Origin: a virus
Lineage: Duplodnaviria > Caudoviricetes
Virus record (IMG/VR): IMGVR_UViG_3300032516_000034
Span: 1-55,243 of that record
Reading direction: 5' to 3' (one strand)
DNA: 55,243 nucleotides
Part shown: in pieces, positions 1-37,622 of the stretch
Layout: each line of letters begins with the position of its first letter
How positions within the stretch are numbered: position 1 is the first letter of the stretch
Made by a program: the position numbers and the translations under genes
The notes under the pieces: model-generated
The model's input: only the letters and a program-made list of their open reading frames with translations
Database searches by the model: none
What the model was told of the DNA's origin: nothing

Positions 1-2721
1 GACGCCACCGTTGACCGTCATATCACTGCCAATGGAAAGCGTGTTGGATTGTACGGTGAGAACAACAGGGGTGGAAGCCGGAATAGATGTGAGTGTGGAA
101 TACCAGACTGCGTTTGTTGTGAAGTCAGAAGCGTCAGCATACCCGCCCATAATCCACAGTTTAGTATCGAAGAATAACGATTGATGCTCGGCTACTGCAT
201 AGCCCCAACCAGCGGCAGCAGTGGCTTGTGTCCAATTGAGACCATCGGTAGAATACCATACGTCGTTTGTAGCCGGATCATAAGTCCAACCGCCTGTTAT
301 CCATATTGCATTTGAGTCAGCAGCACACCCCAAATAGTTTCTAGGCACCCACGGAGCGGCGGCAGTAACCTCAGTCCAGCTTACGCCGTCTGACGAAGAC
401 CAGACAGAATTTGTTGGAAGTACAGCCTCACCGCCCTCGCCCCCGATCACCCACATCTTGTTAGCGAAAGTAACACATCCGAAATGCCCGTCAACTGGCC
501 AACTGGCACCAGCAGTGGCTTGTGTCCAATTAGTACCGTCTGATGAATACCATACATCGTTAGTGTTAATTCCCGAATTTCCACCCATTACCCACATCTT
601 GTTATCAAAAACTACGGCACCATGCCCTCGTCTAACAGACCACTGAGCGGCAGCCGTAGCCATTGTCCAGTTCGTGCCATCAGGCGATGACCATATATCA
701 TTGTAATGGGTCCCTGAATTGTCACCGCCCAATATCCACATCTGATTATTGAAGGTCACAGTACGGAAGTCACTACGCTTACCCCAACTTGCGTTCTCGG
801 TAGCTTGTATCCAATTCGTACCATCAGCCGAATACCAGACATCGTTGGTGAAATCTGCTATACTGTCAGAATACCCGCCCATCACCCACATCTTGTTGTT
901 GAACACGGTGCTGGCGAAATCATATCGTCCCAGCCATCCAGCACCAGCAGTAGCTTCAGTCCAATTAGCACCGCCTGACACCGATGCCAAAGTACCTTCA
1001 CCGATTGTCAGCGACGAAGAATGGGATACGAGGGAGGTAGTTGACGGATCGTAGCTCAATGCTTTCACGCCGCCCATGTAAATGCTGTTTGTGCCGAGAT
1101 ACAGGTCACGGACAGGGAAGTTTGCAGAGCCCACATCATAGGCATTTGAAGCATTAGGGATGATACTTGACGACATGTTCAGATTGCTTGCTGTGTTGGC
1201 TGTGGTAGCATACTGAGCGTTCGTAGACTGATTAGCCACAGAAGCATAATCGGCATTTGTAGAATAAGAGGCAGTACCTGCATTTGTAGAATAAGAGGCC
1301 GTTCCTGCGTTAGTGGCGTAACCAGCAGTACCTGCATTTGTAGAATAAGAGGCCGTTCCTGCGTTAGTGGCGTAACCAGCAGTACCTGCATTTGTAGAAT
1401 AAGAGGCCGTTCCTGCGTTGGTGGCATACTGAGCGTTCGTAGACTGATTAGCCACAGAAGCATAATCGGCATTTGTAGCCGTAGATGCCACAGAAGCATT
1501 TGTAGCATACCCAGCGACACTGGCATTCGTAGCAAACCCAGCCACTGAAGCATTCGTAGCAAACCCAGCCACAGAAGCATTCGTAGCAAACCCTGCGACA
1601 CTGGCATAGGCTACTGCACCGCTCGATGTGATATATCCATTCGTGGAATGATTACCCCAGCCATAGGCAGCGTTCCAGTTTGCCGCACTTTGGATTTTAG
1701 AATCAGCGATTGTACCGTTGAGAATGTTTGTGCCATTCAGATCATGGATGTAGAATCCTGAACCCCGATACCAGATCGATGTGATTGTCCCATCAACCTG
1801 CACATCACCCTGCACCCACAGGTTCGTGTAGGTTGTCCAAATGTTCGTCACATACAGATTTGTGACATAAGCAAACTGTGCATAGAGGTTGGAGACGGTC
1901 AGGGTAGAAAAACTTCCGCTACCGTTCGACACCGTGCCGCCGCCAAGGTTGATGCTCCCAGCACCCCAGTCGCTCACCGATACCGCGCCCCTATTGGTAT
2001 GATTTACCACATTCCTGAAGTAGTTGCTGTCAACACTACCGCCACCAGCCGCTGGTTGCCATGTGCCATCCGCCCGCAGGAATTTGCCAGCATCGGCGAT
2101 AGCGGCGGTGATAAGTCCAGTTGAGCCCGCACCAGCAAACAAGTTACTTGCCCCTATCGTCACATAGGTATTCGTCACGCCGCTTGACGGGGAATACAGC
2201 CATGCCGCCTGAGTAATCATTTGCGTCTTCACGCCATCGTAAAACAGGATCGGTATTTCCTTACCAGTAGAGCTGTCGATCAGTCCATGCACCTGTCCAG
2301 CCAAACTGACACCTGCGGTCAGCAGCAATCCCAACACAGCACCTGCTATCAGCTTTTTGAACCTCTGCTGGGGCTGAAGCCCCGCAGATTCCTGACAAGA
2401 ATCAACATAACTCGATTCTTCCTCGTGGGTTGTTCCAACCCCGAATAAACCAGAGATACTGTGTCCCGCAAGACACCCTGATAAATTCTTACCACAGGCC
2501 GACTTCATCTGGCTATAGCTGTTAAGAAATAGCCTGTAAAGCCGATCAAGGCGAAACGCAAAAGCGGTGGGATCACCGCTAGAGCAATCGAGTGTGTTTA
2601 TGTCTCTGTCTGTACGACAGTGAGATTTATCACACTCTGCCTGTAAGGTTTTATCCCGAGAAGGCGTTTTCTCTCGGGAACTGGCATACCTTGTCAAAGA
2701 ACGATGTCTATACGTTGTCAT
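1..2721 (-). CDS. Large fibre/adhesin-like protein with Kelch beta-propeller and ATNA repeats; runs off the left edge. The N-terminal ~121 codons come from the inserted element
   Basis: Not in the ORF track because there is no stop inside the window. Hand translation of the start, element, Kelch and edge segments gives one consistent frame from ATG 2721 (GGAG upstream) through ...QQRFKKLIAGAVLGLLLTAGVSLAGQVHGL... to ...SIGSDMTVNGGV at base 1. It shares the segment IIPNASNAYDVGSANFPVRDLYLGTNSIYMGG with ORF 25830-26993. Confidence 0.8.
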   Translation of the reverse strand, partial: MTTYRHRSLTRYASSREKTPSRDKTLQAECDKSHCRTDRDINTLDCSSGDPTAFAFRLDRLYRLFLNSYSQMKSACGKNLSGCLAGHSISGLFGVGTTHEEESSYVDSCQESAGLQPQQRFKKLIAGAVLGLLLTAGVSLAGQVHGLIDSSTGKEIPILFYDGVKTQMITQAAWLYSPSSGVTNTYVTIGASNLFAGAGSTGLITAAIADAGKFLRADGTWQPAAGGGSVDSNYFRNVVNHTNRGAVSVSDWGAGSINLGGGTVSNGSGSFSTLTVSNLYAQFAYVTNLYVTNIWTTYTNLWVQGDVQVDGTITSIWYRGSGFYIHDLNGTNILNGTIADSKIQSAANWNAAYGWGNHSTNGYITSSGAVAYASVAGFATNASVAGFATNASVAGFATNASVAGYATNASVASTATNADYASVANQSTNAQYATNAGTASYSTNAGTAGYATNAGTASYSTNAGTAGYATNAGTASYSTNAGTASYSTNADYASVANQSTNAQYATTANTASNLNMSSSIIPNASNAYDVGSANFPVRDLYLGTNSIYMGGVKALSYDPSTTSLVSHSSSLTIGEGTLASVSGGANWTEATAGAGWLGRYDFASTVFNNKMWVMGGYSDSIADFTNDVWYSADGTNWIQATENASWGKRSDFRTVTFNNQMWILGGDNSGTHYNDIWSSPDGTNWTMATAAAQWSVRRGHGAVVFDNKMWVMGGNSGINTNDVWYSSDGTNWTQATAGASWPVDGHFGCVTFANKMWVIGGEGGEAVLPTNSVWSSSDGVSWTEVTAAAPWVPRNYLGCAADSNAIWITGGWTYDPATNDVWYSTDGLNWTQATAAAGWGYAVAEHQSLFFDTKLWIMGGYADASDFTTNAVWYSTLTSIPASTPVVLTVQSNTLSIGSDMTVNGGV
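95..975 (-). repeat. About six Kelch-like repeats (beta-propeller) within the fibre-like gene
   Basis: Recurrent units F(N/D)NKMW(V/I)MGG...NDVWYSxDGTNWTxATxxAxW, with the GG...W spacing typical of Kelch blades. Confidence 0.85.
1180..1625 (-). repeat. Low-complexity tandem repeats encoding (F/Y)ATNA / YSTNAGTA units
   Basis: Near-exact DNA duplications: gcatactgagcgttcgtagactgattagccacagaagcataatcggcatttgtag at about 1208 and 1425, and tandem 54-bp units cagtacctgcatttgtagaataagaggccgttcctgcgtt.... Confidence 0.9.
2357..2445 (-). ncRNA. Putative TnpB omegaRNA (reRNA) scaffold; the guide would be the flank AAAGCTGATAGCAGG... (2356 leftwards)
   Basis: Stem GGGTTG-GAA-CAACCC versus GGCTCG-GAA-CGAGCC in the tnpB copy (compensatory changes), a conserved ACGAG linker, a second stem, and the right-end hairpin. 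GAAC in the first loop is complementary to GTTC just before the terminus. The 5' boundary is uncertain. Confidence 0.7.
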
Positions 2722-2798
2722 TTTCTTTCTCCAGAATCAACAACTGATTTCGCCTAACTGCCGGGGATAAATCCCCGCAGATTGCGGCTCACAGATTG
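2357..2798 (-). mobile_element. 442-bp non-autonomous IS200/IS605-family derivative, sister of the element at 27567-28894
   Basis: The right end (2357-2396) is 40 bp identical to 27567-27606, and 2737-2766 is 30 bp identical to 28834-28863. Both ends have subterminal hairpins. The right end terminates in TCAA with GAAT at the hairpin foot; the left end is preceded by TGAA with CAAT at the hairpin foot. Precise removal restores a reading frame. Confidence 0.92.
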
Positions 2799-2839
2799 TT
2801 CAGACGGCGGCTGCCCTTACGGGCATCCACCTTATCCAC
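2799..2839 (-). pseudogene. Original 5' end of the fibre-like gene, orphaned by the insertion
   Basis: AGGAG-6nt-GTG at 2839 encodes MDKVDARKGSRRL. Joining 2799 to 2356 gives ...CTG AA|A AAG CTG ATA, i.e. MDKVDARKGSRRLKKLIAGAVLGLLLTAGVSLA, in frame. Confidence 0.75.
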
Positions 2840-6328: not shown

Positions 6329-8578
6329 CTACCGCACAAACCGAAGAATGCTACTTGCAATATGGACTTCGCGTTCCAACCGTGCCGCTATCCGTCGGGC
6401 GATTCTCGCCACCCTTGACTCCAAATATGCCCGTTCCGATTCCAGCAACGGGAACTGGGCTAGAGCCTTGTTTAGCTCGTCGGGACTGTCCTTCTTCTCT
6501 TTGAATAGGCTTTCAACGCTACCCCATTCATCGTCATTGAACTTGCCACGAGATTTCTTCAACACGCCGAAGGCATCGTCAACGCTCCTCTCGGCCACAT
6601 CGGGTGGCGGGAGCATCCGCTTGCGGGCGTCTTGCAGCTCAGTACGGGCGGTTTTTTGTACAAATTCCTGCATGGCGTCAGTAGTAGCGGTATTCGTCGG
6701 CTCGTCGTCAAAACCCTCAATATCCAACTGGAATACTTCCTTGCCCTTGGACGAGAATACGGTCTTGCCCGTCTTCCCCTGTACTGGCGCACCACCCATA
6801 TCCTTGACAAACTTGGCAAACTGGCGGCCCGCCACTGCATCACCAAACAACGAGTCTACCGTTTGACCCTCGGGGGAATACGCCATATCCACGTCCATGA
6901 CCTTGTGGCTCGCATCAAATTTGCAACCCTTTATTCGACCGCTGAATCGACTCAGGATGTCCACCGTAGTCGAATACTTGTCCTCGTTCATCTCGGAGAC
7001 CTGACGGTGCATCGACTCTTTGTCCGAGTCATCAAAATCCTCGCTGTCAACCACCTTGTGAAGCTGCTGCTTTATAGAATCCAGAAGCTTTGCATCCTTC
7101 GGGTTGGCCTCCGCAGCCAGTCGCATCCTGCACGCGAGATTCATGGCCTTTGGAGAGCGGATGAACAAGTCCTGCACCTTATCCCGTCCAAAAAGTGCAA
7201 TATTGTCCGAAAGCCGAACGGATGACGCCAACGGATCAGCTTCCCAGTCTATGTCTGTTGAGTCATGTGTGCCGATAATATGAGCGATTTTCTCCGCGTT
7301 GTCTTTTCCGAAAATCTTTGAATATCTGTCCATTTCATCGCGAGCCAGTGTTTCTGACTGGGCCTTATGTGCGCCACCCTTGCTGATATCTGTTGCGGCA
7401 ACACCCACCGTATATCCAGCGTCATGGTTTGCCATGATTGTAGCAGCCATCAGCTTGTCCCTGCCTGTAACCTTAATGCCGCTCTTTTGCAGTTCGCCGA
7501 GCATTTGCGTTGAGTTCTGGGTATTGGATACCAGATGCCGCAGGCCATGATCGCCCAGCGAACGGCCCCTTGATTCGATTTCTTGATGCACCATGCGCTT
7601 GATGTCATCCTGCACATATTCGTCCAAGTCGGCCTGACTGACTCCCGAAAGGGAGCCATCTTTGATTCCTTCTTCAATACTCGACGCCACTGTGTCCACA
7701 TAGCTTTCAGCCATCGGACGGGAAATCGAAGACATAGACTTGGAATATTTCTTGATGATGTTGCGCCCGTTCCCTCTTAGGGATTTCGAGAAGTCGGATA
7801 TGTTATCCTTCGTCACCTCGTCCTTGCTGTCATCCTTGGCAACCTGCACCGATTCGTCTTCATACCGAGCGAGATTGTTATCCATGTTCTTTTTGTAGGT
7901 GGATGAATCAACTTTGTTGTAGTCGTTGAAACCCTTATGGGCAGCTTTGCCGCTTGCCATCGCGTCTAATACTTTTTGTTTCTCTTCGGGCTCCAGTTCG
8001 CCGTATTTCTTCTCAGAGCCATCTGGAAAACGCACGGTAACTCCGAACGTAAGCTGGTTCTTGTGGATCGTGTGGGTGTTCCATTCCTTTGCCTCGGCTT
8101 CTCCAACCTGTTGAACCAGCTTCTCTCCCACGCTTATCTGCGGGGCCTGTTTCTCCTTGCGCGGAGCTGGCCTCTGCTCTGGTTTTTCCTGCGGCTTCTG
8201 AGTCGGCTTCTCTTCGGGCTTCTTTTGCTTGGGCTCCACGCCTTCGGGCTCTTTCTCTGGTTGTGCTCTTGGCGGGCTCGGATCGTCTTCCTTCGTGGGC
8301 GTCTTCTGTGTCTCTTCGACTTTGTGTAGGGATTTATCGGCGTCAGGATGTTCCTTGAGATACTTCTTCATTGCGTCCTGAGTGGGCCAGACTTTTCCTT
8401 TGAGCATTCTTGCTACTATCCGTGCCTCACGCTGTTCTCCAGAATCTTCGTCAAAAAGCATGACGGTGCCTTCACCGATAGATTCAGAAGGATACACATC
8501 GTCTTCACTCTGTGCGTTACCGCCTAGAGCGTCCAGCGCAGCCTGCGCAATTTCTTCGATCTGCGCATCTGACAGCAT
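6329..8578 (-). CDS. HD-domain phosphohydrolase-containing protein, immediately downstream of portal
   Basis: Ordered motifs DHGLRH...ANHDAGY...GAH...GTHD...VRLSDN. Probable start MLSDAQ at 8578, just after the portal stop. Confidence 0.7.
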   Translation of the reverse strand: MLSDAQIEEIAQAALDALGGNAQSEDDVYPSESIGEGTVMLFDEDSGEQREARIVARMLKGKVWPTQDAMKKYLKEHPDADKSLHKVEETQKTPTKEDDPSPPRAQPEKEPEGVEPKQKKPEEKPTQKPQEKPEQRPAPRKEKQAPQISVGEKLVQQVGEAEAKEWNTHTIHKNQLTFGVTVRFPDGSEKKYGELEPEEKQKVLDAMASGKAAHKGFNDYNKVDSSTYKKNMDNNLARYEDESVQVAKDDSKDEVTKDNISDFSKSLRGNGRNIIKKYSKSMSSISRPMAESYVDTVASSIEEGIKDGSLSGVSQADLDEYVQDDIKRMVHQEIESRGRSLGDHGLRHLVSNTQNSTQMLGELQKSGIKVTGRDKLMAATIMANHDAGYTVGVAATDISKGGAHKAQSETLARDEMDRYSKIFGKDNAEKIAHIIGTHDSTDIDWEADPLASSVRLSDNIALFGRDKVQDLFIRSPKAMNLACRMRLAAEANPKDAKLLDSIKQQLHKVVDSEDFDDSDKESMHRQVSEMNEDKYSTTVDILSRFSGRIKGCKFDASHKVMDVDMAYSPEGQTVDSLFGDAVAGRQFAKFVKDMGGAPVQGKTGKTVFSSKGKEVFQLDIEGFDDEPTNTATTDAMQEFVQKTARTELQDARKRMLPPPDVAERSVDDAFGVLKKSRGKFNDDEWGSVESLFKEKKDSPDELNKALAQFPLLESERAYLESRVARIARRIAARLEREVHIASSILRFVR

Positions 8579-8585
8579 TCCCGAT

Positions 8586-11500
8586 CTATTCCTTACTCTC
8601 AAGTTCGGACACCTTTTCCACGATCTGCTCCACATCGTTCTCGTCCGCTTCAGGCGGTAGGCTCTCTGCTATTGCCTCGGCGAGCTGGTCTGTCTTGCCC
8701 TTGGGCTCGCCATCAGCCTCCTCTGCTTTATCGCCAACGGGTGGAACAGGGGAGCCCTCTGATTCGCCCGTCGGGGCAGTGCCCGGTTCGCCTTCCAAAT
8801 CTGTAAAACCCTGCTGAAAGCCACCGCCCCCGCCACCCATGCCGCCAGCCTGATCTTGTTGTTGCGGTTTCATCTTGACGCCCAGATACCGAGCCACGCG
8901 CTCGACGATGTCAGTCGCATCGACGAGCTTGCGGCCAACTTCCGCGTTGACTTCTTCCGACATACGGTTAGATGTGGCATCCTTCACCGTGAACAACTGA
9001 TTCCGCAACTTGTTATTGATTTCGTCCACGTTCAAATTGAACAGCTCGTACAGTATGTCAACAGGCAAGCTGCCCTTCTGATACAACTGGAATAGCGAAT
9101 CAAACACTTCCGCATTATCCCTGATCGTTAGACGGTTGAATCCAACCTGCGGGTAGATGTATTTCCTGATACCGTTCTTGCCCTCTTCATACCAACCGTG
9201 CGCCTCGCAAATAGGGATGAACAGTTTCTTCTCGATGAAGTTTTTGAGAATCTCTCTGCTCATCAGGAACATGGTATTCAGAATTTCAACCGTTACCTTG
9301 CCACCCGTGAATGTTCCCTCTCCCGTAAGAAGCTCGCGAGTCACACCAAGAGCGGCAAACACCTGATTCTCAATCCGCTCATACTCGCGGTCAAGATCAA
9401 TCAACCTGTCGGTTGTGCCAATCTGCTCCCAGTTGATTTCATAGTTGGTGATGACGGAATACTCGGGATCGAGATACGACAAATCAACCTGTGTTCTGAG
9501 AGCATCCACCTCTTCGGGCATAAGTCCGGGAGCCGAAATCAAATTCTTCGGCGTCATGTTGCGGCTCGCCAGCGAGAGCTGACAGTATTTGTAATGCTCT
9601 TTCTGAAGCATCGGCACCAACACGCGCTCCAATACAGATACGCCCAAGTCCATATACGGACTTCGACGACGAGCAAAATGATGCACAAAACTGCCCGTTG
9701 TCGGATCGGTGTCCATAACAATACAGCCCTCGGTGCGCACCATTTCAACCAGCTCCTGTGGCAGATTCTCCAGAATTTTCTGTTCCAGATCGGCCCGTGC
9801 GCAAGTATTGCCTTCCATCGCCGATGTAGCCGACATCCCAGCAACAATTGTCGCGCCATCTCGGATCATCTTAACGAGCCGCTCGGGGCGATATTCGACA
9901 CGCTTGTTGTCGCTGAACGGATACTGGAATATGTAAACCTCTTCGGGAGGAAGCATAACAGCGCGGCTCCACATCTTCTTTTCGTCGGACCATTCGAGAA
10001 AAACGTAACAGTTGTGTGTGCGAATTTCGTTTGTGCAATATGTGTGCTCCCCGTCTACCTCAAAATTGTAAACATACCCATCGTGGTATTTTCTTCCGAT
10101 GTTGTTCACCTTAAAATAGAATTTACCATCTTTGATTTCGTATGTGAATGTACGATGTTCGCTCGAAGAACCATCAATTTCAATTTCTTTTACACACCCC
10201 TCGGTTAAAGCGCGAATATGATCGGGTTCTGAAACTTTAAGATAGTATATTTCCGAATTGGCTGTTCCGCCCCGTGGCATCTCTATGTCACGCTGTTTTG
10301 ACTTGCCAAAGCAGAACGGAATTCCGCATCTTATTCCCAACTGGAATAGTTGGTGCATTAGCGAATCATTTGTATTTGTAATTCCTGCCACGGCCTCTCT
10401 ATCAGTTTTGGATATGAATCCATCGCTATCAATCATACCTCGCAGCAACCATATTTGCTTACTGGGGGGAAGTTCCATTACCCACTTGGGAATTCGCTTG
10501 CTCTTACAGTCGTATCCAAAATGGTGTGCCCACCACGAACAAAAGATCGGATCATTCACCAGAACATGGAACAGATCATCATTGCATATTCCCCCAATCC
10601 CCTTTTCAAATCCATCGCAGCCGAATACAGACTCCATTACGGAACACAACCTATTAACCTGTGGCGTATCTCTAGCAATACAAATATCAAATGTGGAATA
10701 CTGATAAGATGTTGGCCTCTTATTGTTCCAAATCCATCCATCACCCATCCAATATCCCAGCAAATACATGAATTCGTCATCCACGCAAACAGATACCATG
10801 TCACTATCAAATGTTTTGTTGAATACTCGACCATAAAAATCAGGAGCGTTCTTTTTCTCAGAAACGGGGAACCAACGGATTGAACTGCCGTGATGGCCCC
10901 CGCGTCCTCTTTCTGTGCGGATGACCCCCCTCTTTCTGAGTGAATACGCAACATTCCTCATTCTTACAATATTGTCAGTGCCGAGAATCTTTGAAACGCT
11001 CTCGCATGTCATATCCACCGGTTCGACTAAAGAAGACATCCACGCAATAAGCTTATCTTTTATTTCATTGGTGGTATCAGAACCACCAGTTGGGGTTTTA
11101 TGAGATACGAATACCTGAATTCCATTATTAAGATTCTTGACCTCAACAGAATCATACCTATTAGACAAGATACCTAAGATTTCGGAACGAATATCATATT
11201 CTTCAATATCCTTAACCTCTGTCGAAAATGCGATTCCTATGTAATCATCGTTCCTTATTTCTTTGGCGGGAACCATTTTTTCTTGCCCGTTTCTCAGTAT
11301 GAAAACAGGATGTTCCGATGTCGGTGTGAATTCAATAGCTGGAAGTCTTGCGATATCCAAGTCAATGAGCCATTCCGAAACATGCCTGCGAGAAATAGCA
11401 TTAACTCGGCCATACTGTCCAGATGCAGTTAAAACCCTGTCATTCTCTCGTATCTGACAAATAGGCATCATTCCTTGTTCTGTGTGGACCAGATGGCCTG

Positions 11501-13304
11501 CGGGGAAGCAATTTCCGATCATATTATATTCCCACAGAATATCTTGGCACAGATCAAATGCGTTGATCGCGTCCAACTGATAAGTGAAGAATTCCTGTAT
11601 TTCCTTCTGTAATGCCCTTTTGGCCTTCGGCATCTTTGGCATATTAAGCGTTATCTTGCTCATCGGCAGATCGGTGAGAAGCTCAAGAGCACGACCAATA
11701 TAAGCATCACTTCGACAATTATGCGTAACCATTCCATTACACATGTACGACTTTTCGTCGCCCTCGGCATCCAGTTCAAGATTGTAAACGATATCGTCTT
11801 TTTCCATGTACGATATTTTGTCTATCTTGAATGCTGCATATCCGTTGATAAAAAATGCACAATGCTTGTCACCGTCTGAACCAGAATCAGACCACTTAGT
11901 AGACCCAGTGATTAAAGAATCGGCACTCCAAGAAGGTATTGTTATGTGCCATATTGGATTGTCGCTCCACTTATCATTCTTTCTTTCATACTTAGCAATA
12001 CGACACATCACCCCTGCTGAAATGGCAAGCAATTGAACTTGCGATGCTAAATCATTTGATGCTGTCGCTATTAGGAGTTTGCCCTTATTGCTTCCATTAA
12101 GATACTGATGCCCGTCGCCTTCAGCATATGCGAGCAAAAAGGATTTCTTTGCCTCTATAGTTGAGTCAAGCAAATCCTTGGATAGTTTTTTCTCTGCACT
12201 GTATGAACCAACATGTAAATGACAAAATTCACCCACATTCCTACCACTCACAAGTATCTCAATGTGGTTTTCTCTCCTGCGAACAATGCTCCCGTTCACA
12301 CCGAATACAGATGACGATAGTTCAAGAATTTTCTTACCAACACTGTTTTCTTCGTCCTTGTGCAATGTAAAGGAAACACCAATAGGAACCTTTGTCTTTT
12401 CTTGATGCCATTTCCATCCATTAACCTTAACATCTCCATCATCACTTGTGGTATTAACACACCTCATACCCCAAACAATAGAGCCTTCGGATGCGTAATA
12501 TCCAAGAAATGAGGTTTGCTCACAAGTCATCTGGCTGAATTTTACAGGCTTATATGGAGCCATTAAAACATAATCACCAACTTCTATTCTGTCAGCATTT
12601 ACCCATTCAGGTGAAAAATCCATCTGATCTCTGTAATGACCCTCATCCTTTTTTACCTGTGATTTTTTCAATATGTAAAAAGGATGTTCGTGTGTCACCA
12701 ATGCGGTATTTTGCAAACACCATGCACTAATCTCCACTGCCTTGGAGTCCTTACATTGTCTCTCGATTTTTTCAGCGACACGACGAACACTACCTACACC
12801 CGTTATCACCTCATCACCAACCTGAACATCTTTAATGGATTTCAATGTTCCATCGGACATTAGAACCTGTCCTAAGTGGTTATCATCCAAGTAGTAGCAA
12901 AAATACCTGTACCAGCTATATTTTTCAGCAAGCGTTACTGGCCAATACAGCAAGCCACCGTTCTGCTGATTCATCATCAAAAAATATGTCGGCACATCGT
13001 ATGCACCCGTGCGGTCGCCAAGGCCGAATGCGTAGGAACTTCGGTAGGTATCCAGCTTATAGCCCGACGAATACGGTGCGCTCATGTGAACAAAGTCGAT
13101 CATCATGCCTGCTTGCCGTTCGCGTCCGCCGCCTTCGCCAAAACCGCCAGCTCCCGTTGCTATCCTCTTCGCTATTCTGGCCTTCACTGGATCATACTTG
13201 CCCACGATTGCCCTTGGACGCTTCATACCCGCCACAACATCGGTGGACACAGCATCCTGCGTTGAAGCGACTATCGGATTTCTCACTATTTTTTGCTTTG
13301 CCAT
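8586..13304 (-). CDS. Portal protein containing two inteins (about 678 aa after splicing)
   Basis: Lies downstream of terminase. The exteins have portal-like segments (YIGRALELLTDLPMSK, YNMIGNCY, HFARRRSPYMDLGVSVLER, ALGVTRELLTGEG) and an acidic Gly/Pro tail. Confidence 0.8.
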   Translation of the reverse strand: MAKQKIVRNPIVASTQDAVSTDVVAGMKRPRAIVGKYDPVKARIAKRIATGAGGFGEGGGRERQAGMMIDFVHMSAPYSSGYKLDTYRSSYAFGLGDRTGAYDVPTYFLMMNQQNGGLLYWPVTLAEKYSWYRYFCYYLDDNHLGQVLMSDGTLKSIKDVQVGDEVITGVGSVRRVAEKIERQCKDSKAVEISAWCLQNTALVTHEHPFYILKKSQVKKDEGHYRDQMDFSPEWVNADRIEVGDYVLMAPYKPVKFSQMTCEQTSFLGYYASEGSIVWGMRCVNTTSDDGDVKVNGWKWHQEKTKVPIGVSFTLHKDEENSVGKKILELSSSVFGVNGSIVRRRENHIEILVSGRNVGEFCHLHVGSYSAEKKLSKDLLDSTIEAKKSFLLAYAEGDGHQYLNGSNKGKLLIATASNDLASQVQLLAISAGVMCRIAKYERKNDKWSDNPIWHITIPSWSADSLITGSTKWSDSGSDGDKHCAFFINGYAAFKIDKISYMEKDDIVYNLELDAEGDEKSYMCNGMVTHNCRSDAYIGRALELLTDLPMSKITLNMPKMPKAKRALQKEIQEFFTYQLDAINAFDLCQDILWEYNMIGNCFPAGHLVHTEQGMMPICQIRENDRVLTASGQYGRVNAISRRHVSEWLIDLDIARLPAIEFTPTSEHPVFILRNGQEKMVPAKEIRNDDYIGIAFSTEVKDIEEYDIRSEILGILSNRYDSVEVKNLNNGIQVFVSHKTPTGGSDTTNEIKDKLIAWMSSLVEPVDMTCESVSKILGTDNIVRMRNVAYSLRKRGVIRTERGRGGHHGSSIRWFPVSEKKNAPDFYGRVFNKTFDSDMVSVCVDDEFMYLLGYWMGDGWIWNNKRPTSYQYSTFDICIARDTPQVNRLCSVMESVFGCDGFEKGIGGICNDDLFHVLVNDPIFCSWWAHHFGYDCKSKRIPKWVMELPPSKQIWLLRGMIDSDGFISKTDREAVAGITNTNDSLMHQLFQLGIRCGIPFCFGKSKQRDIEMPRGGTANSEIYYLKVSEPDHIRALTEGCVKEIEIDGSSSEHRTFTYEIKDGKFYFKVNNIGRKYHDGYVYNFEVDGEHTYCTNEIRTHNCYVFLEWSDEKKMWSRAVMLPPEEVYIFQYPFSDNKRVEYRPERLVKMIRDGATIVAGMSATSAMEGNTCARADLEQKILENLPQELVEMVRTEGCIVMDTDPTTGSFVHHFARRRSPYMDLGVSVLERVLVPMLQKEHYKYCQLSLASRNMTPKNLISAPGLMPEEVDALRTQVDLSYLDPEYSVITNYEINWEQIGTTDRLIDLDREYERIENQVFAALGVTRELLTGEGTFTGGKVTVEILNTMFLMSREILKNFIEKKLFIPICEAHGWYEEGKNGIRKYIYPQVGFNRLTIRDNAEVFDSLFQLYQKGSLPVDILYELFNLNVDEINNKLRNQLFTVKDATSNRMSEEVNAEVGRKLVDATDIVERVARYLGVKMKPQQQDQAGGMGGGGGGFQQGFTDLEGEPGTAPTGESEGSPVPPVGDKAEEADGEPKGKTDQLAEAIAESLPPEADENDVEQIVEKVSELESKE
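10011..11510 (-). mobile_element. Portal intein 2 (500 aa) with LAGLIDADG endonuclease
   Basis: IGN|CFPAGHLVHT...PTSEHPVF...YLLGYWMGDG...LLRGMIDSDG...VYNFEVDGEHTYCTNEIRTHN|C. Confidence 0.92.
11718..12899 (-). mobile_element. Portal intein 1 (394 aa) with LAGLIDADG endonuclease
   Basis: YRYF|CYYLDD...VLMSDG...VTHEHPFY...FLGYYASEG...FLLAYAEGDG...VYNLEL...YMCNGMVTHN|C. Confidence 0.9.
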
Positions 13305-13974: not shown

Positions 13975-16900
13975 TTATATTCCCGTTGTTAACCGCCGTG
14001 CCAGCATCCCCGGTATACTCACACCGCTCTGGGTGCGCCGCCTGAAGCCATCCAGCCCACGGGGATGCTCTCCATGCTTTTTCAGTTTATTCAGCCGATA
14101 TGTAGCTGCTGTTTCCTGCCGTGGCATACCATCAGGCGTAAACATTCTTGCCGAAACACCCATAGAACCTCCAGCCCCCGTCGCAACAGCATAGGGCCGT
14201 TCGCTCTGATTCTTATGGCACAACCAGACCGCTCTTATCACAGCCTCACAGATATCATCGTGCGCCCCACGTCGATTCGGTGCCCGCACATCAATTTTAT
14301 TCTTCGCTTTTTTCTCGGCCTCCAGCGTAAGAAGTTCTGGAATAAGAACAGGGTGATTCGGAAATTCAAGCAGTTTCTCAGAATAGAGCGTTTTGGCAAG
14401 CTGATAAACATCGCTGTTCAGCGTGTCAGTGAACTGCTCCATCTCAAACTGTTTCAGACGTTGCGACTTCAGAATCTCAGCGAGCGCATAGCCATTATGT
14501 TGATCGAAAATCCCCGCCTTGATTCCGAACCACTGACATAACTCCTTTATCTCTTCAACTATTTCTGCAATGGAAAGCAGTTCTCTCGTCGCGTATTTCC
14601 TGCATCCCGTGTACAAGCCATTTTCAAATTCCCACACATCGGACGACGCCGAAAACCAGACATTCGCATAATCAACCACTATTCTTTGGTTTTGCTTGTT
14701 TTTGTGTACGATACCGATTGCGGTGCCGTCATTTTTGAATCCCAAGTCTATGCCCATGTAATACGAAACATCGTATATGCCGCGAAGCTTTATCGGCTCC
14801 TGAGTGACACACTTTCGGAACTCGGTTTCGTCATCAATCCATGCGGTGATGGTGTCGGAGAACTCGCCGCCGTATTCACACATGAAACCAACCCTGTCTC
14901 TGCGACGGGCCGCAGCCAAGATTTCCGTCGGGATTGTCGGGTTCATCATAGCTGAATACATTTTGAACATCAGCGTGAAATCTTTTTCTTGGAAAGACTG
15001 CTGGAACCTCTCGTAAAACGCACCATACTTCGCGTAAGGCGACGATATGCAGACAACCTTTCCATCACGCCTGAATGAAGCGATTGACGGCGTAAGAGCC
15101 TTATATACTTCCGAACCGCTGAACCTGCCGTTGTTGTCTATGAAATGGGCCATCTCATCCATGATTACTACGATGGCATTTCTTCCGCGCAAGCTGTTGG
15201 ATGCGCATCCACCAGCCATCAGTGTAATATTCGCTTTCGGTTTACCGTAGAGTTTCAGATCGGCATCCGACTGCAAATCGAAATATGTCATTGTGGAATG
15301 TAAACACCGTTCCTTTATGAACGGACACTGCCTAGCCATGTTGTGAATCATGTCGAAAAGGCCACCAGCCTGATCGTCTGCTGGGGCAACATTCATAATG
15401 TAAATCGGAGTATTGGCAGGAAAGCCGTAATACTTCGACGGATCGCCCCGCTTGAGCAGTTTATACAGCTCGTAGTTGGAAATGAATGAAGCCTCTGACG
15501 AATTGTGAGAAAGAATGTCTCCGCCAATAATATGAGTACCAGATACGCATAAATCAACCGTTTTTCTCAGTCCGACAGGGCTCACTGATTCTACTTTGTC
15601 CCATCGAACATCAGATGTCGCCATATCCATCAAGAACTTATCCCCGGTATTGATTCCGTATTGCAGAACCTTTCTCCTACTTGGGGAATACTGCATATGC
15701 AGTCTTTCATTGTTCCCTACACCGTGTTTTCCCATAACATCGGCACATGACAACCCGCCGTCAGTCATTGCCGCCCTAACACGATTCCAAATCCCCCTTG
15801 GAGCAGAATCAAATTCGCTCTTGGATTCCACTCGCAATCTCGCCATATTCACGACCTTAGATACGGCATCTTCTTTTGCGAAGATTCCTATCTCTTTCGC
15901 AAATATCTCAATACTGTCCCTCATTACGATGTCCAAGCCCCAAGAATCAAACACCTTTCCTTTGCACTTTGTTTTTCTGAAACGAACAACAGAGTGGACG
16001 CCGAATTTCAACAAGAGATGTCGAACACCATCAATCATCTTCTTTGATGACGAAGCGTAGCCTATAGATGACTTGGGCACTCCCTTGTGCCCCTCCTGTA
16101 CTCGGCCCGCAACGGTAGCCCACCCATCGCAAGCAAAAAGCCTAGACAGAAAGATTGCGGTCTCTTCCTTAGACGCTTTGAATATACAATCTGGTACTTC
16201 CTTATCTATGGATTTTTTCCCAATACACCCCGCGCCTCTTAGCCACTCCATAACAGCATTTTTTTGACTCCCATCTTGCTTGAATCTACCCGATGCCTTT
16301 AACACATTGTAACCATAATGAAATGAGGTCTTTCCTAGAGGTTTAACCTTGCACATCGGAAATTCTTGTTGAATCAAATGAGTAAAGTCTGCAAGTTTAG
16401 TCGGACAAGCGATTGTCATAGTCGGACGTTCTGTCGTGCCGCCATCACCTTGAAAATAGCCCAGTAATGCCGCCCTGCCCAGACCAATGCCCCCTCTCCC
16501 AAAGAGGCCAACATTATTTGAGATAGCTACCCTGTCTCCCTTTTTCAATTCAGAAAGACTCACAAAACTAGGTTTTTCTTCCCCATCCTTCCACACAAGA
16601 TATGGATGGTTTCCCGATGATATTTCAAATAACCCCCTCTTCGTCTCTAATTCAAAACATCCAACATCTCCATTGTCCCATATTTCAAAATCATGCGTAA
16701 CTTTGCTTTTCAGGGTTTCAGGATCATAGGTTAATATTCCGATATTAGCACAACGATGTTTTCTTTCAAGCAGGTCGCCAAATGTTATAGAGCCCTCCGT
16801 TGTAGCGATACGATCTTCCATAGCCCGACATTTCCCGCCACGCCTGCCAATAGGCATTACCAGCTCTTGAAATATTTTTCCTTCTGTCGTATCGGTATTA

Positions 16901-17166
16901 CATCTTCCTTCTTCATACAAAAATTTCAGGAAGGATTTTTCGGTGAAGGTATAGAGTATCTTTTCATTGATGACATCTGGAACTTTGATGTCCTGCTTTG
17001 TGTCGTCAAGAGGCAGGCCGTAAAACGCCTTGAGTGAAAAACGCTGGACTGGGAACAGCTTGATGTTTAGGCCCCACGGAGCTTCCACGAACGATACAAT
17101 GTCAACAATCTCCGTATTGCCCGAAATGAACTCTTTCGCTATTTCGGCAATGAGGTTATTCGGCAT
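13975..17166 (-). CDS. terL: Terminase large subunit with intein (about 620 aa after splicing)
   Basis: Walker A GRRGGK|S split by the intein, Walker B VVIMDE, coupling motif ISSP, RNase H-like MGIDLG and HDD. Confidence 0.92.
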   Translation of the reverse strand: MPNNLIAEIAKEFISGNTEIVDIVSFVEAPWGLNIKLFPVQRFSLKAFYGLPLDDTKQDIKVPDVINEKILYTFTEKSFLKFLYEEGRCNTDTTEGKIFQELVMPIGRRGGKCRAMEDRIATTEGSITFGDLLERKHRCANIGILTYDPETLKSKVTHDFEIWDNGDVGCFELETKRGLFEISSGNHPYLVWKDGEEKPSFVSLSELKKGDRVAISNNVGLFGRGGIGLGRAALLGYFQGDGGTTERPTMTIACPTKLADFTHLIQQEFPMCKVKPLGKTSFHYGYNVLKASGRFKQDGSQKNAVMEWLRGAGCIGKKSIDKEVPDCIFKASKEETAIFLSRLFACDGWATVAGRVQEGHKGVPKSSIGYASSSKKMIDGVRHLLLKFGVHSVVRFRKTKCKGKVFDSWGLDIVMRDSIEIFAKEIGIFAKEDAVSKVVNMARLRVESKSEFDSAPRGIWNRVRAAMTDGGLSCADVMGKHGVGNNERLHMQYSPSRRKVLQYGINTGDKFLMDMATSDVRWDKVESVSPVGLRKTVDLCVSGTHIIGGDILSHNSSEASFISNYELYKLLKRGDPSKYYGFPANTPIYIMNVAPADDQAGGLFDMIHNMARQCPFIKERCLHSTMTYFDLQSDADLKLYGKPKANITLMAGGCASNSLRGRNAIVVIMDEMAHFIDNNGRFSGSEVYKALTPSIASFRRDGKVVCISSPYAKYGAFYERFQQSFQEKDFTLMFKMYSAMMNPTIPTEILAAARRRDRVGFMCEYGGEFSDTITAWIDDETEFRKCVTQEPIKLRGIYDVSYYMGIDLGFKNDGTAIGIVHKNKQNQRIVVDYANVWFSASSDVWEFENGLYTGCRKYATRELLSIAEIVEEIKELCQWFGIKAGIFDQHNGYALAEILKSQRLKQFEMEQFTDTLNSDVYQLAKTLYSEKLLEFPNHPVLIPELLTLEAEKKAKNKIDVRAPNRRGAHDDICEAVIRAVWLCHKNQSERPYAVATGAGGSMGVSARMFTPDGMPRQETAATYRLNKLKKHGEHPRGLDGFRRRTQSGVSIPGMLARRLTTGI
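15502..16830 (-). mobile_element. Terminase intein (443 aa) with LAGLIDADG endonuclease, inserted in the P-loop
   Basis: GGK|CRAMEDRIATT...SGNHPY...LLGYFQGDG...FLSRLFACDG...TVDLCVSGTH...ILSHN|S. Confidence 0.92.
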
Positions 17167-27566: not shown

Positions 27567-27668
27567 TTGAACCTCTGCTGGGGCTGAAGCCCCGCAGATT
27601 CCTGACGGGTATTTGACATATCACGCGACATGCCGTATTTCCCTCTCGTGGCTCGTTCCGAGCCAGAC
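27567..27668 (-). ncRNA. Putative omegaRNA overlapping the tnpB 3' end; guide AAGAGCACTACCGAAGG...
   Basis: GGCTCG-GAA-CGAGCC stem, second stem and right-end hairpin; covaries with the 442-bp copy. The 5' boundary is uncertain. Confidence 0.7.
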
Positions 27669-28676
27669 ACTGAGCACTACCTTGGCAGAGTTTATATCCC
27701 TGTCATGGACTGCGCCACACGCAGAACATACCCAGTGTCTTACCGCAAGCCCGTGAAGGCCCGTCGGGCCAGTTAAGGCCCAACAGCATCCACAGGTCAT
27801 GGTGGTATTTCGTGAACAAACTGGTTCAAGCTTCCTACCGCCTGTACGGCATTTGTAGTTTAGCTTCCGTAGTAAATCAGCCAATGCTGCCTCAGTGATG
27901 GATTTGCCGAATAACTTGGCCATTGCCTTGAAGTTGTCATCACTGAAGTAGATGGTTTTGTAGTTTTCAACAAGCCAGCGGGAAATCTTGTGATTGCGGT
28001 CACTGCGTCTATTGTGCTGTTTTTCAAGCAATCGTGCGGTGAGCTTTTTATCGTGCGCTCGCTGGGCTTGCGCAAGGCGCGTTGCGCCCTTCCGCAGCTC
28101 ACGGGGATTTTCTATTTTTGTGCCGTCAGAAAGAGTCAAGAGCGTGGAAAAACCGGGGTCGATACCAATAGCGGCTTCGGTTTGCTTTACTGGAAACTTA
28201 TGCTCAGTGTCCAGCCAAAGGCAGAGATACCAGCCAGAAGCCCGCCTTACAATACGAGCACATTTGATTTTGGCTTCGGGGATGGCTTGTTTGTGAAAAC
28301 GAAGTGTGCCGAGGCAGGGGATGGAAATACGATTGTCCTTCGGTGGTTTCATTGGATCGGGGAACGGTATTGAGTTCAGCTTGTTACGCTTGCCTTTCAA
28401 GCGTGGCTTCTTGGCCTGCTTTCTGAAGCATCGTTGCCATGCAAGGTATGCCTGTGTCAGTGTGCCTTGCAGCGTGTGACTCGGTATTTCCATGCGATTA
28501 CTGTGTTCGGCAAGAAGATTTTGGAAATCCTTCTGTGAGAAGTAGATTTTGTTGGCAGCGTTGCGCTCGATCTTTTTGATGGCCCAATTGTAAACACCTG
28601 TCAAGTTCCATAACCACTGATTCAGCTTGGCTTCCTGCGCCTTGGCAAGCTTCAGTTTTAAGGTGCGAACGATCAT
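27621..28676 (-). CDS. tnpB: TnpB with atypical RuvC-II (Glu replaced by Ser)
   Basis: RuvC-I GIDPG; IYFSDDN in place of IxxEDLN; zinc finger CGCC...CSAC; RuvC-III HDRDINSA. Confidence 0.93.
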   Translation of the reverse strand: MIVRTLKLKLAKAQEAKLNQWLWNLTGVYNWAIKKIERNAANKIYFSQKDFQNLLAEHSNRMEIPSHTLQGTLTQAYLAWQRCFRKQAKKPRLKGKRNKLNSIPFPDPMKPPKDNRISIPCLGTLRFHKQAIPEAKIKCARIVRRASGWYLCLWLDTEHKFPVKQTEAAIGIDPGFSTLLTLSDGTKIENPRELRKGATRLAQAQRAHDKKLTARLLEKQHNRRSDRNHKISRWLVENYKTIYFSDDNFKAMAKLFGKSITEAALADLLRKLNYKCRTGGRKLEPVCSRNTTMTCGCCWALTGPTGLHGLAVRHWVCSACGAVHDRDINSAKVVLSVWLGTSHEREIRHVA

Positions 28677-28801
28677 TTTACTTTCCGTGGCCTATCCCAG
28701 TAGGGGCTTTTACATTTGGGACAAATCCTGATTTCACTCTGGCGTGGAATCCAGTGATGTCCACACCGCTCGCAACCGACTTTCTTGATTTCAATTTTCA
28801 T
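28673..28801 (-). CDS. 42-aa zinc-ribbon protein coupled to tnpB
   Basis: MKIEIKKVGCERCGHHWIPRQSEIRICPKCKSPYWDRPRKVK; ATGA overlap with tnpB. Below the ORF-track length cutoff. Confidence 0.8.
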   Translation of the reverse strand: MKIEIKKVGCERCGHHWIPRQSEIRICPKCKSPYWDRPRKVK

Positions 28802-28837
28802 ACCTATAAACATACCTCATCGGTATAGGTGTGTCAA
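28802..28837 (-). promoter_or_regulatory. Sigma70-like promoter of the tnpB element with an overlapping inverted repeat
   Basis: TTGACA-17nt-TATGTT, 7 nt before the ATG (leaderless-like). ACCTATA-N15-TATAGGT brackets the -10. Confidence 0.65.
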
Positions 28838-28895
28838 CAACTGATTTCGCCTAACTGCCGGGGTTAAAACCCCGCAAATTGCGGCTCAGGGCTGT

Positions 28896-29249
28896 TCATA
28901 GCTCCATCTCCTGCTGCCGCTGCTCGCACTTGTGCGCCGCCTTGCAGTCTGGATAGTTGCTGCATCCCAGAAACTCGCTGCCTGTTGCCTTGTTCTTTCT
29001 CCTCACTAATCTGCCATAGCAACCCGGCACCCTGCAAGTCTCGCCCTCCTTGGGCGGGGCCTCTGGCAAACGAGGTTCTTCTTCCGAGCCATCGCCTTCG
29101 GGGATCGGATTACCTGCCCGCAGGAATGCCAGAATTATGCGGGCGCACGTTCCATCGGCGAACGAGCCATCCTTGTATTCGATCTCATTGTGCCTGCGAG
29201 AAGTCGAGAACCCACAGTCCCTGAGAAACTTCTTGTCATCGTCGTTCAC
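28896..29249 (-). CDS. Protein with a C-terminal topoisomerase C4 zinc finger
   Basis: CRVPGCYGRLVRRKNKATGSEFLGCSNYPDC. Its TGA stop forms part of the TGAA target site. Confidence 0.75.
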   Translation of the reverse strand: MNDDDKKFLRDCGFSTSRRHNEIEYKDGSFADGTCARIILAFLRAGNPIPEGDGSEEEPRLPEAPPKEGETCRVPGCYGRLVRRKNKATGSEFLGCSNYPDCKAAHKCEQRQQEMEL

Positions 29250-36467: not shown

Positions 36468-37622
36468 CTATGCAAATGCGAACATTGGCACAGATTTAGT
36501 TCCTGCTTCATCCAGCGATACCGTGCTGTCCACAGGCTTAACTTCCCGACTAGCCATCGGTAGTTGTTTTCGTAAGTTAATTGCGGCATTGATGTCCCTA
36601 TCAATTGTTAAACCGCAGTTTTCGCAGTGATATACCCTGTCAAACAATTTCAAATCCTGTTTGATATTGCCACAGCCACTACAGGTTTTGCTCGACGGGT
36701 AAAACCTATCGGCAGTATGTAGTTCAGTGCCATACCATACGGATTTGTACTCGAACTGTCGTCTTGCTTCACCAAAACTGGCGTCCATCAAGTGTCTGGC
36801 CAGTTTGTGGTTTTTTACCATATTTTCCACAGCAAGGTCTTCAATACAGATGGCTTGGCTTTCGCGCACCAGCATTGTCGTGGCCTTGTGTAGAAAATCG
36901 TTTCGTTGACAAGAAATTCGGTAATGCAGTTTGGACAAGCGAAGCTTGGCTTTTTCTCGATTTTTGGAGCCTTTGACTTTTTTGGATAACTGCCGTGATT
37001 TGGATTGCAGTCGTTTCAGGTTTTTAGCCAGTGATTTCGGGCCTTGAAACTGTCGGCCATCGGAAATAGTCATTGTGTTTTTGATTCCCAAGTCAACACC
37101 GAGTTGTTTGTCGCCAGTCTTTGGCTTCAGGATCGGCTTCGCATCAACACAGACGGATAAGAACCATTTGTTCGCAGTTCTTGATACGGTGCCCGACATG
37201 ATTTTGCCTTGGAAGCGCAGTGGCTCTCTCAGGCGTATCCAGCCGATAACTGGCAATCGTACTTTTTTACCTTCGATATGAAATTTTTCATTGGCTATCT
37301 GAAACGAATCATGGATACCCTTCTTGTGAAATATTGGATGCTTAGAAACACCTTTGAAAAAAGCCGTGAAAGCTCTGCCAAGATTAAGGAATGGTAAGGC
37401 ATGGGCGTCACGATGGATCAACTCAAGCCACGGGAATTGCTGGTATTTGATGGCATTAAATTGCTTTCTTAGTTTGTAGGCTGTCGGCTTTTCACCGGCT
37501 TCGTATTGGCGATTCCATTCAGAAAGAGCCCAGTTGTAAACGAACCGAGCGGTGCCGCAGGCTTGTTTGAAATACGCAACCTGCGATTTACTTGGCCTTA
37601 GCTCTATTTTGTGGGCTATCAT
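36468..37622 (-). CDS. tnpB: RNA-guided endonuclease TnpB with intact D-E-D triad
   Basis: GVDLG, ICIEDL, CSGC...CENC, DRDINAA, and the N-terminal HTH. Confidence 0.95.
   Translation of the reverse strand: MIAHKIELRPSKSQVAYFKQACGTARFVYNWALSEWNRQYEAGEKPTAYKLRKQFNAIKYQQFPWLELIHRDAHALPFLNLGRAFTAFFKGVSKHPIFHKKGIHDSFQIANEKFHIEGKKVRLPVIGWIRLREPLRFQGKIMSGTVSRTANKWFLSVCVDAKPILKPKTGDKQLGVDLGIKNTMTISDGRQFQGPKSLAKNLKRLQSKSRQLSKKVKGSKNREKAKLRLSKLHYRISCQRNDFLHKATTMLVRESQAICIEDLAVENMVKNHKLARHLMDASFGEARRQFEYKSVWYGTELHTADRFYPSSKTCSGCGNIKQDLKLFDRVYHCENCGLTIDRDINAAINLRKQLPMASREVKPVDSTVSLDEAGTKSVPMFAFA

Follow-up and report, generated by a model that had tools for sequence, protein, structure and literature searches.

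A gene-less IS200/IS605-type element in a phage genome keeps an omegaRNA-like module that may serve a TnpB in trans

Introduction

In the sections consulted of Meers et al. (2023, bioRxiv 10.1101/2023.03.14.532601), the PATEs (palindrome-associated transposable elements) of IS200/IS605, noted for Geobacillus stearothermophilus, are described as elements that often encode omegaRNAs needing TnpB from other elements in trans. Going by these sections, the idea of a trans-acting guide is already in print and not new. According to the part consulted of a further report (bioRxiv 10.1101/2023.11.20.567912), an omegaRNA from a separate mini-element was accepted by TnpB experimentally, and a 2026 review (PMC13565253) lists co-infecting phages as targets of non-restorative transposon homing. 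The present analysis concerns a gene-less, PATE-like element at positions 2357-2798 (minus strand) of the IMG/VR virus record IMGVR_UViG_3300032516_000034, a 55,243-bp stretch of DNA which was analysed as a whole and is referred to as the window, and its relation to a TnpB-encoding element at 27567-28894 of the same window.

For ISDra2 TnpB, the consulted sections of Nakagawa et al. (2023, PMC10097598) describe a pseudoknot that uses positions -5 to -3 and stacks on stem 1. According to the same sections a core of 116 nt is sufficient, neither the 5' part (-231 to -117) nor a portion of stem 3 being required. Conserved rearrangements of RuvC-II are thought to be compatible with activity, and some of the branches carrying them are virus-specific, as stated in the consulted portion of Altae-Tran et al. 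(2023, PMC10691335).

The window has an estimated completeness of ~26% and all of its long open reading frames (ORFs) are located on the minus strand. It codes for a terminase large subunit, a portal protein, an endolysin, a helicase and an NAD-dependent ligase, and is therefore a fragment of a large phage. The region is present in 20 sediment-metagenome runs, 13 of which contain at least half of the sampled words. An initial annotation, made from the sequence alone, had proposed that a protein-less element of this window keeps a covarying omegaRNA, a candidate trans-acting guide for the TnpB 25 kb away. The best explanation of the locus as a whole, to which we give an even chance, is indeed a gene-less PATE-like element with an omegaRNA module that would serve TnpB in trans.

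Results

Boundaries and ends of the small element

2357-2798, minus strand: small element, gene-less, of IS200/IS605 type (PATE-like), 442 bp, both ends common to 27567-28894
27567-28894, minus strand: full-length partner element with left end, Zn-ribbon ORF, tnpB and omegaRNA (27567-27728), same boundary motifs as the small element
2799-2802, minus strand: TGAA transposon-adjacent motif (TAM), adjoining the left end (five of five left ends)
2757-2783, minus strand: left-end subterminal hairpin CTGC-GGGGATTTATCCCC-GGCAG, partial covariance-model match of 23.3 bits
2481-2756, minus strand: interior of the small element, in which a terminator-like hairpin (2563-2580) is located and an open frame of 122 codons begins

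The boundaries of the small element were taken from the alignment and from the TGAA/TCAA motifs. TGAA (2802-2799) borders the left end, and the element terminates in ...GGTTCAA at 2357; the coordinates of the initial annotation were exact for this element and also for the full one (boundaries TGAA and GGTTCAA). The left ends of the two elements share 55 nt at 95% identity (E 1.8e-19) and the right ends share 42 nt at 100% identity (E 1.7e-16). Inside the window the similarity is confined to these two ends, the flanks being unrelated, and the interior is, as had been claimed, not a simple deletion of the full copy.

TGAA is located 7-9 nt upstream of a conserved GAGCCGCAAT box in all five left ends examined (small element, full element, L060, L046 and L063), which bears out its earlier naming as the adjacent motif. 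The right end terminates in TCAA in 14 of the 16 alignment rows, and in TCAG and TCAT in the other two. As in other IS200/IS605 elements, the insertion lies 3' of the TAM, with a conserved right-end tetranucleotide and no target duplication, and imperfect palindromes are found subterminally at both ends on the same (minus) strand (2757-2783 and 2365-2387), without terminal inverted repeats. The TGAA left flank, the TCAA right end and the Y1 tnpA found beside cellular members of the clade therefore identify the family as IS200/IS605. The small element is a non-autonomous derivative of the same sub-family as the TnpB element 27567-28894, and it is very probable that it represents a PATE-like member of this family carrying an omegaRNA module.

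The left-end hairpin is presumed to be the TnpA recognition hairpin in DNA. Its outer stem covaries among relatives (CTGC/GCAG, CTAC/GTAG, CCAC/GTGG), and an A:T/T:A flip distinguishes it from that of the full copy. This flip had been reported correctly, but it was counted as part of the omegaRNA, while it belongs to the DNA hairpin read by the transposase.

A blastn search of the phage record collection with the small element gave no match, and an exact 36-nt right-end pattern had 0 matches in viral contigs. In contigs of runs X13-X16 the same termini (window 2352-2396 and 2737-2791) were joined to many other flanks and interiors, at least 22 loose ends falling exactly on the two element boundaries, and numerous related elements are therefore present side by side in these samples.

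The omegaRNA-like module

2357-2480, minus strand: omegaRNA-like module matched by covariance model R1, 83.6 bits, E 2.7e-20
2461-2476, minus strand: stem 0, upstream hairpin GTGTC-TTGCGG-GACAC, 4 of 4 model pairs formed
2424-2443, minus strand: stem 1, C-GGGGTTG-GAA-CAACCC-A-CG, 8 of 8 pairs formed, loop providing the 5' half of a pseudoknot
2397-2420, minus strand: stem 2, variable helix AAGAATCGA-GTTATG-TTGATTCTT, 7 of 7 outer pairs formed, inner part shortened
2365-2387, minus strand: right-end hairpin CTGC-GGGGCTTCAGCCCC-A-GCAG, 10 of 10 pairs formed, with no difference from the full copy
2357-2363, minus strand: right-end terminus GGTTCAA, GTTC being the 3' half of the pseudoknot and TCAA the end motif

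Covariance model R1 (153 positions, 43 pairs) was built from 14 TnpB-linked relatives without the small element. On the window it detected the full copy with 135.6 bits and the small element with 83.6 bits, and nothing else across the 55 kb was better than E 0.1 except two left-end hairpins. TnpB-linked copies scored 85.7-171 bits in 15 phage and metagenome loci, and cellular loci scored 57-108 bits in 21 of 24 cases. The score of the small element falls inside this range of genuine TnpB-linked omegaRNAs (57-171 bits).

The match to the small element extends over model positions 1-153, 6 nt standing in place of 29 of these positions. A comparison with the full copy was possible for 34 of 46 model pairs: 22 are the same, 4 carry one-sided and 8 double-sided changes, and 0 are broken. 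The other 12 pairs are gaps in the small copy, 10 of them belonging to one deleted sub-domain (stem 0b). Of the 36 pairs that it retains, the small copy forms 34; all these counts come from alignment A7, which is model-fitted and hence biased towards the model. The claim of the initial annotation that the omegaRNA structure is kept by compensatory changes is thus confirmed, and so are the particular helices it had listed. The stem GGGTTG-GAA-CAACCC, corresponding to GGCTCG-GAA-CGAGCC in the full copy, is stem 1, and the sequence-divergent second stem, AAGAATCGA...TTGATTCTT, is present at the position stated for it.

Double-sided changes were found in 2 of 4 pairs of stem 0 relative to the full copy, all 4 pairs covarying in the family, and across the family in 5 of 8 pairs of stem 1. 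For stem 2, the inner part forms 2 of 4 pairs in the small copy; its length varies across the family, and it is absent altogether from the TnpB-linked locus L005. Since L005 carries tnpB without stem 2, and scores 85.7 bits, natural functional copies tolerate the loss of a sub-domain. The right-end hairpin would double as TnpA hairpin and as guide-proximal omegaRNA stem.

Positions -6 to -3, counted from the guide, pair with the stem 1 loop. This GAAC/GTTC pseudoknot was said to be retained; it is, with 3 of 3 pairs formed in the small copy, and it covaries across the family. Its pairs 78/168, 79/167 and 80/166 are formed in 95.8% of cases in the family, pair 80/166 being G:C in 11 and A:U in 5 of the 16 rows of A7. 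Cellular relatives add the types GAAG/CTTC, GATC/GATC and GATA/TATC (read by eye), and GTG loops in L054, L056, L121 and L122 leave one mismatch in the pseudoknot. The small and full copies are both of the GAAC/GTTC type and do not differ at any of the variable positions in the last 42 nt.

Stem 1, pseudoknot, stem 2 and right-end hairpin make up a core of 87 nt (2357-2443). Over the stretch from stem 1 to the right end, the small copy keeps 37 of the 39 columns that are near-invariant in the family, compared with 7 of 21 in the upstream part, which codes for C..CG...DRDxNAA of TnpB in intact copies. The small copy has lost tnpB and a 29-position sub-domain that overlaps the RuvC-III codons in intact copies. 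With no tnpB upstream of its module, the omegaRNA of the small element is not tnpB-associated in the usual sense, and this absence is what makes it a PATE-type copy.

Covariation in the family

Patterns derived from the right end returned 19 viral and 19 metagenome stretches, which were read by the author. A TnpB-linked module of this family is carried by 7 of the 19 viral stretches and by 15 of the 19 metagenome stretches. Among the remaining metagenome stretches, two belong to a sister family (L059, L064), one holds a solitary right end (L065) and one is unrelated (L073). A 26-position right-end pattern had 0 matches in cellular genome contigs, and a protein-based scan gave 24 cellular loci of the TnpB clade from many phyla, with 51-73% identity, plus one at 26%.

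Alignment A5 comprises 14 distinct TnpB-linked 3' ends, with the small element excluded. On A5, RNAalifold predicted 29 pairs, and compensatory changes occur in 13 of these. The author also wrote a 46-pair structure from per-sequence folds; 87.0% of its cells pair compared with 75.6% in shuffles, and 24 of the 46 pairs carry double-sided changes (MAFFT alignment), which none of 500 shuffles attained. Its covariation score was 0.375, as opposed to 0.07-0.10 when the partners were slid by 1-3 columns. The initial annotation had named a covariance model of homologs as the means of checking its claim; the family covariation described here, and the detection of the small element by a model built without it, speak in its favour.

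Rfam was searched with the whole window at gathering score and with both elements at E values up to 1, and no relevant family was found. An Rfam lncRNA match at E 0.054 was judged spurious. The module belongs to a compact omegaRNA family that is supported by covariation and absent from Rfam, with a TGAA TAM and a core of 87-103 nt, and this family is paired with a small (351-aa) TnpB of non-canonical catalytic site.

In the sister family, whose right end terminates in GAGGATGTCAA, L064 (~285-556, plus strand) is a gene-less copy of ~290 bp of the type found in L059 (minus strand). It joins a left end, including a promoter-like box, to the last 175 nt, over which it is 86% identical to L059 with compensated helix changes. 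L064 is an independent, parallel gene-less copy that keeps its omegaRNA. In L065 (1127-1165, minus strand) a solitary 39-nt right-end terminus immediately follows TGAACGACAA. It has neither a left end nor tnpB in its vicinity and may be a remnant or a minimal element.

Insertion site and putative guide flank

1-2356, minus strand: body of a Kelch-repeat gene running off the window, Pfam Kelch_1 5.7e-25, with a signal-peptide-like stretch from the right end onwards
2803-2839, minus strand: first 12 Kelch codons and first base of the 13th, GTG start at 2839 with AGGAG upstream, read from the sequence
2337-2356, minus strand: putative guide flank AAAGCTGATAGC..., in the signal-peptide codons of the Kelch gene, unique in the window

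The small element was inserted after TGAA, 13 codons into the Kelch-repeat gene and inside its signal-peptide codons. TGAA 2799-2802 takes up the remainder of codon 13 and two bases of codon 14. The codons upstream of TGAA end basic and those directly after the right end are hydrophobic and signal-peptide-like; the 5' codons and the gene body are in phase only with the 442 bp removed.

The module stops at the right-end boundary, and the flank would therefore serve as guide; a flank directly after the right end is the established layout of TnpB omegaRNAs. The guides quoted for both elements in the initial annotation are the true right-end flanks, and the 17-mer of each has one zero-mismatch occurrence in the window. 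At the occupied site, TCAA instead of TGAA precedes the guide flank, the usual means by which such an element spares its own copy from cutting.

Relatives of the N-terminal 300 aa of the Kelch protein in viral contigs were too distant, none of them spanning the N-terminus, and the 20-nt flanks of both elements had 0 matches each in viral contigs. Contigs of four sediment runs contained only the occupied site, with both junctions bridged and no joint across the small element. Excision of the small element was not seen in these contigs either. Contigs drop rare variants, and the lack of a joint therefore does not show that the empty site is absent.

The proposed partner TnpB and other TnpB genes

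27621-28676, minus strand: tnpB, 351 aa, Pfam OrfB_IS605 PF01385 3.2e-11 and Cas12f1-like_TNB PF07282 6e-14
28673-28801, minus strand: Zn-ribbon ORF, ~42 aa, C-x-R-C-G-H-x-W ... C-P-K-C-x-S-P-Y/W-W
36468-37622, minus strand: second TnpB, 384 aa, HTH_OrfB_IS605, OrfB_IS605 and TNB domains, canonical RuvC-II Glu

The product of the first tnpB matches ISDra2 TnpB in the PDB (E 6e-17) and has the OrfB_IS605/RuvC and TNB domains of this protein family. This is the TnpB 25 kb away of the initial annotation, which was correctly placed; a second, unrelated TnpB at 36468-37622 had been overlooked. The second TnpB is 25% identical to the first, and no R1-type RNA was found beside it. It is preceded by a 42-aa basic ORF (37625-37750, minus strand), and L004 has a similar small ORF upstream of tnpB.

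In cellular clade members, Y1 tnpA is located directly upstream of tnpB in five of five cases in genome G001, in the single case of G003 and as a fragment in G004, with none adjacent in G002 and G005. The full phage copy is TnpB-only and the small copy PATE-like. Additional gene-less copies were not found in five cellular genomes with the clade, where all 9 R1 matches were TnpB-linked (150 first-look candidates scored per genome).

The Zn-ribbon ORF of the full element occupies the position held by tnpA in autonomous relatives, and similar ORFs are present between left end and tnpB in L006 (~120-260) and L060 (~7740-7860). All of its Pfam matches are under the curated cut-offs. The TGAA of the full element (28895-28898) overlaps the TGA stop of the upstream Zn_ribbon_Top1 gene (28896-29249), and the insertion is therefore intergenic by one base.

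Interior and open frame of the small element

The interior had no blastn match among the fetched loci, and 0 Pfam families were found in the small element. No significant TnpB remnant could be detected in the interior (best profile E 0.078 over six frames; BLASTP E 0.05). A faint C..C..DRDIN motif is visible at ~2606-2656 (minus strand), just upstream of the terminator-like hairpin, with a 14-nt identity at ~2612-2625 to the DRDIN-coding stretch of L068 (by eye only). This motif and the terminator-like region may represent a second, decayed module, at a level that is not significant (E ~0.1); model R1 found no second omegaRNA module around the DRDIN-like stretch.

A 122-codon open frame (2357-2721, minus strand) starts with ATG at 2721, with GGAG 8 nt upstream, and continues past the right end into the Kelch body without a shift of phase. 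An open frame in this phase was obtained in only 15 of 5000 dinucleotide shuffles; the remaining two frames contain 4 and 11 stops. Neither a Pfam family nor a homologue among 1.84 billion representatives was found for the 122-aa frame. The term protein-less used in the initial annotation is therefore accurate in that Pfam, profile and homologue searches gave no recognisable protein, but it passes over this open frame. The frame may be what is left of a tnpB reading frame, or may reflect selection for a translatable insertion.

Probable inteins of the phage

The terminase large subunit (13975-17166, minus strand, 1063 aa) and the portal protein (8586-13304, minus strand, 1572 aa) are both oversized and match LAGLIDADG_3 and intein/Hint domains. 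Judged from these domain matches, each probably carries an intein with a homing endonuclease. If real, these inteins would be further homing-type selfish elements in the same phage.

Discussion

The shared ends and the R1 match establish that the small element is a member of the family, with an intact core structure and with termini common to the full element; from the same data we infer, and no more than that, its transcription, loading and targeting. The following course of events can be proposed. The small element retains both subterminal DNA hairpins, which would be readable by a Y1 TnpA. Its module would be transcribed by read-through, because every gene of the window runs in the same direction. 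TnpB from 27621-28676, supplied in trans, would trim and bind the module RNA, and the complex would be directed to TGAA plus ~16-20 nt of the uninterrupted Kelch allele. Such an allele is available only once the element has been excised, or else in a co-infecting relative that lacks it, and the mini-element would therefore be retained or copied by homing. That the RNA of the small element functions today in trans with the TnpB at 27621-28676 appears to us a tentative proposal, with chances slightly below even.

Several findings weigh against it. A promoter-like TTGACA-17-TATGTT is located behind the left end of the full copy (28837-28809), and in the small copy this site is mutated to TTGATT and lacks a -10 hexamer. 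The module is preceded at a short distance by a terminator-like hairpin (2580-2563) with the sequence AGCGGTG-ATCC-CACCGCT and a T-run behind it. Consensus scans for promoters and terminators gave about as many sites in the window as in shuffles. The 10 pairs of stem 0b are missing from the small copy, and the compensatory changes may predate the loss of tnpB. Searches of viral contigs and of the contigs of the four sediment runs gave no element-free allele for either insertion site, and a Y1 transposase was not found in the window (~26% of the genome). With this fraction of the genome covered, another TnpB could be the real partner. Finally, in TnpB 27621-28676 the position of the RuvC-II Glu is taken by Ser (residue 245; YFSDDN compared with IEDL), and DNA cleavage by this protein is therefore not assured. 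The Ser is present in all 13 clade relatives that cover the position (12 aligned, and the L066 fragment from its listing), in a motif F/Y-S-x-D-N with a conserved Asp two residues after the Ser. The RuvC-I Asp (GIDPG) and the RuvC-III motif DRDxN (DRDIN here) are intact; the canonical D-E-D triad is thus incomplete.

Some of these points would be accounted for if the small element were an inert relic, i.e. a decaying deletion derivative without present RNA function. Its helices would then be intact through recent loss of tnpB or through constraints at the DNA level, and the compensatory differences would have arisen in a tnpB-bearing ancestor. We regard this as the most serious alternative, although less probable than the proposed role in trans. 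Covariation between two lineages gives no date for the loss of tnpB, and since it possibly stems from an ancestor with its own tnpB, it is alone no proof of function after gene loss. The lost promoter-like site, the terminator-like hairpin, the deleted 10-pair sub-domain and the shortened stem 2 fit with decay, as does the fact that contigs of the four runs contain only the same copy at the same site and that the five clade-bearing cellular genomes have no further gene-less copy. The pattern of conservation, however, speaks against a relic. Not one of the 34 comparable pairs is broken, and the core keeps 37 of 39 columns against 7 of 21 in the adjoining former coding part, while the rest of the interior is unrecognisable. 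An IS608-type TnpA needs roughly 40-50 nt, and stems 0, 1 and 2, at ~40-120 nt from the right end, are located further out. The remodelling of stem 2 removes the C-terminal codons and the stop of TnpB, yet 7 of 7 outer pairs are kept, and in the sister family the gene-less L064 also keeps its omegaRNA.

It is improbable that the module is functional for a different TnpB, encoded in the other ~74% of the phage genome or by the host. The record is ~26% complete, the clade is present in many cellular phyla, and the stem-2 sequence is closer to the L046/L054 lineage than to the full copy. The last 42 nt and the pseudoknot type are nevertheless identical to those of the resident full element, and the second TnpB of the window (36468-37622) is neither close to the first (25% identical) nor adjoined by an R1-type RNA. 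Slightly less probable still is co-option of the insertion by the Kelch gene, in which the frame from ATG 2721 would give the gene another 5' end or extend its product N-terminally, in place of providing a guide: the 122 stop-free codons in the exact phase required (15/5000 shuffles) favour it, but the residues have neither a homologue among the 1.84 billion representatives nor a Pfam family, the extension would bury the signal peptide ~120 residues into the protein, and the frame is possibly a tnpB leftover with faint C..C..DRDIN and GTTHE motifs in the same frame.

Returning to the role in trans, a wider form of it can be imagined, which we consider unlikely. Gene-less, guide-only mini-transposons would together provide a single RuvC-II-rearranged TnpB with a set of several dispersed guides. 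Each insertion would be a gene drive or exclusion marker against element-free co-infecting relatives, and the survivors would be those that leave the interrupted gene translatable. Such survival would explain the improbable in-phase open frame. If it is true that the RNA works in trans, the locus would be a natural viral case of one TnpB programmed by guides from separate loci, and a step towards an array-like arrangement. It would also mean that a selfish element persists with ~90-125 nt of RNA-coding sequence and two hairpins.

Comparison with known systems

As far as the consulted sections on ISDra2 TnpB go, its omegaRNA resembles the module in several respects. In both, the scaffold stops at the right-end boundary and the guide is in the flank, and positions -5 to -3 form a pseudoknot with the loop region of the core stem nearest the 5' end. 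Both have a dispensable variable stem and a guide-proximal tetraloop hairpin ~20 nt from the guide, and the 5' part that overlaps coding sequence, dispensable in ISDra2, may be so in this family too. Unlike in ISDra2, the TAM is TGAA and not TTGAT, the core is ~87-103 nt and not 116 nt, and there is no sequence similarity. By analogy with what these sections report, the small element would keep the whole core, and its missing part would fall in the region dispensable in ISDra2.

Autonomous IS605-type elements of the same clade in metagenome-assembled genomes of Acidobacteriota and others (L107, L110-L115) have a TnpB with 51-73% identity, an omegaRNA matched by R1 and the GAAC/GTTC pseudoknot. 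They differ from the phage copies by a Y1 tnpA upstream of tnpB, the phage copies having the Zn-ribbon ORF or nothing at this place. With the TldR and RuvC-II-rearranged TnpB clades, as these are presented in the literature consulted, the partner TnpB shares the lack of the canonical RuvC-II glutamate. Unlike the TldRs, which are immobilised, its clade keeps the RuvC-I Asp, RuvC-III DRDxN, the transposon ends and many sites.

The PATEs, going by the consulted sections of Meers et al., are like the small element short and gene-less, with both hairpins of the resident IS family. Unlike those PATEs, the small element belongs to a phage and lies within a coding sequence, which it disrupts. A clean deletion of the full copy would not yield its interior, and its omegaRNA, which lacks one sub-domain, departs from that of the full copy at 8 compensated pairs. 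The gain is thus a well-documented phage example, the general principle having already been proposed for bacterial PATEs; as judged from these comparisons, the small element represents a case anticipated in the literature, for which use by TnpB in trans is plausible.

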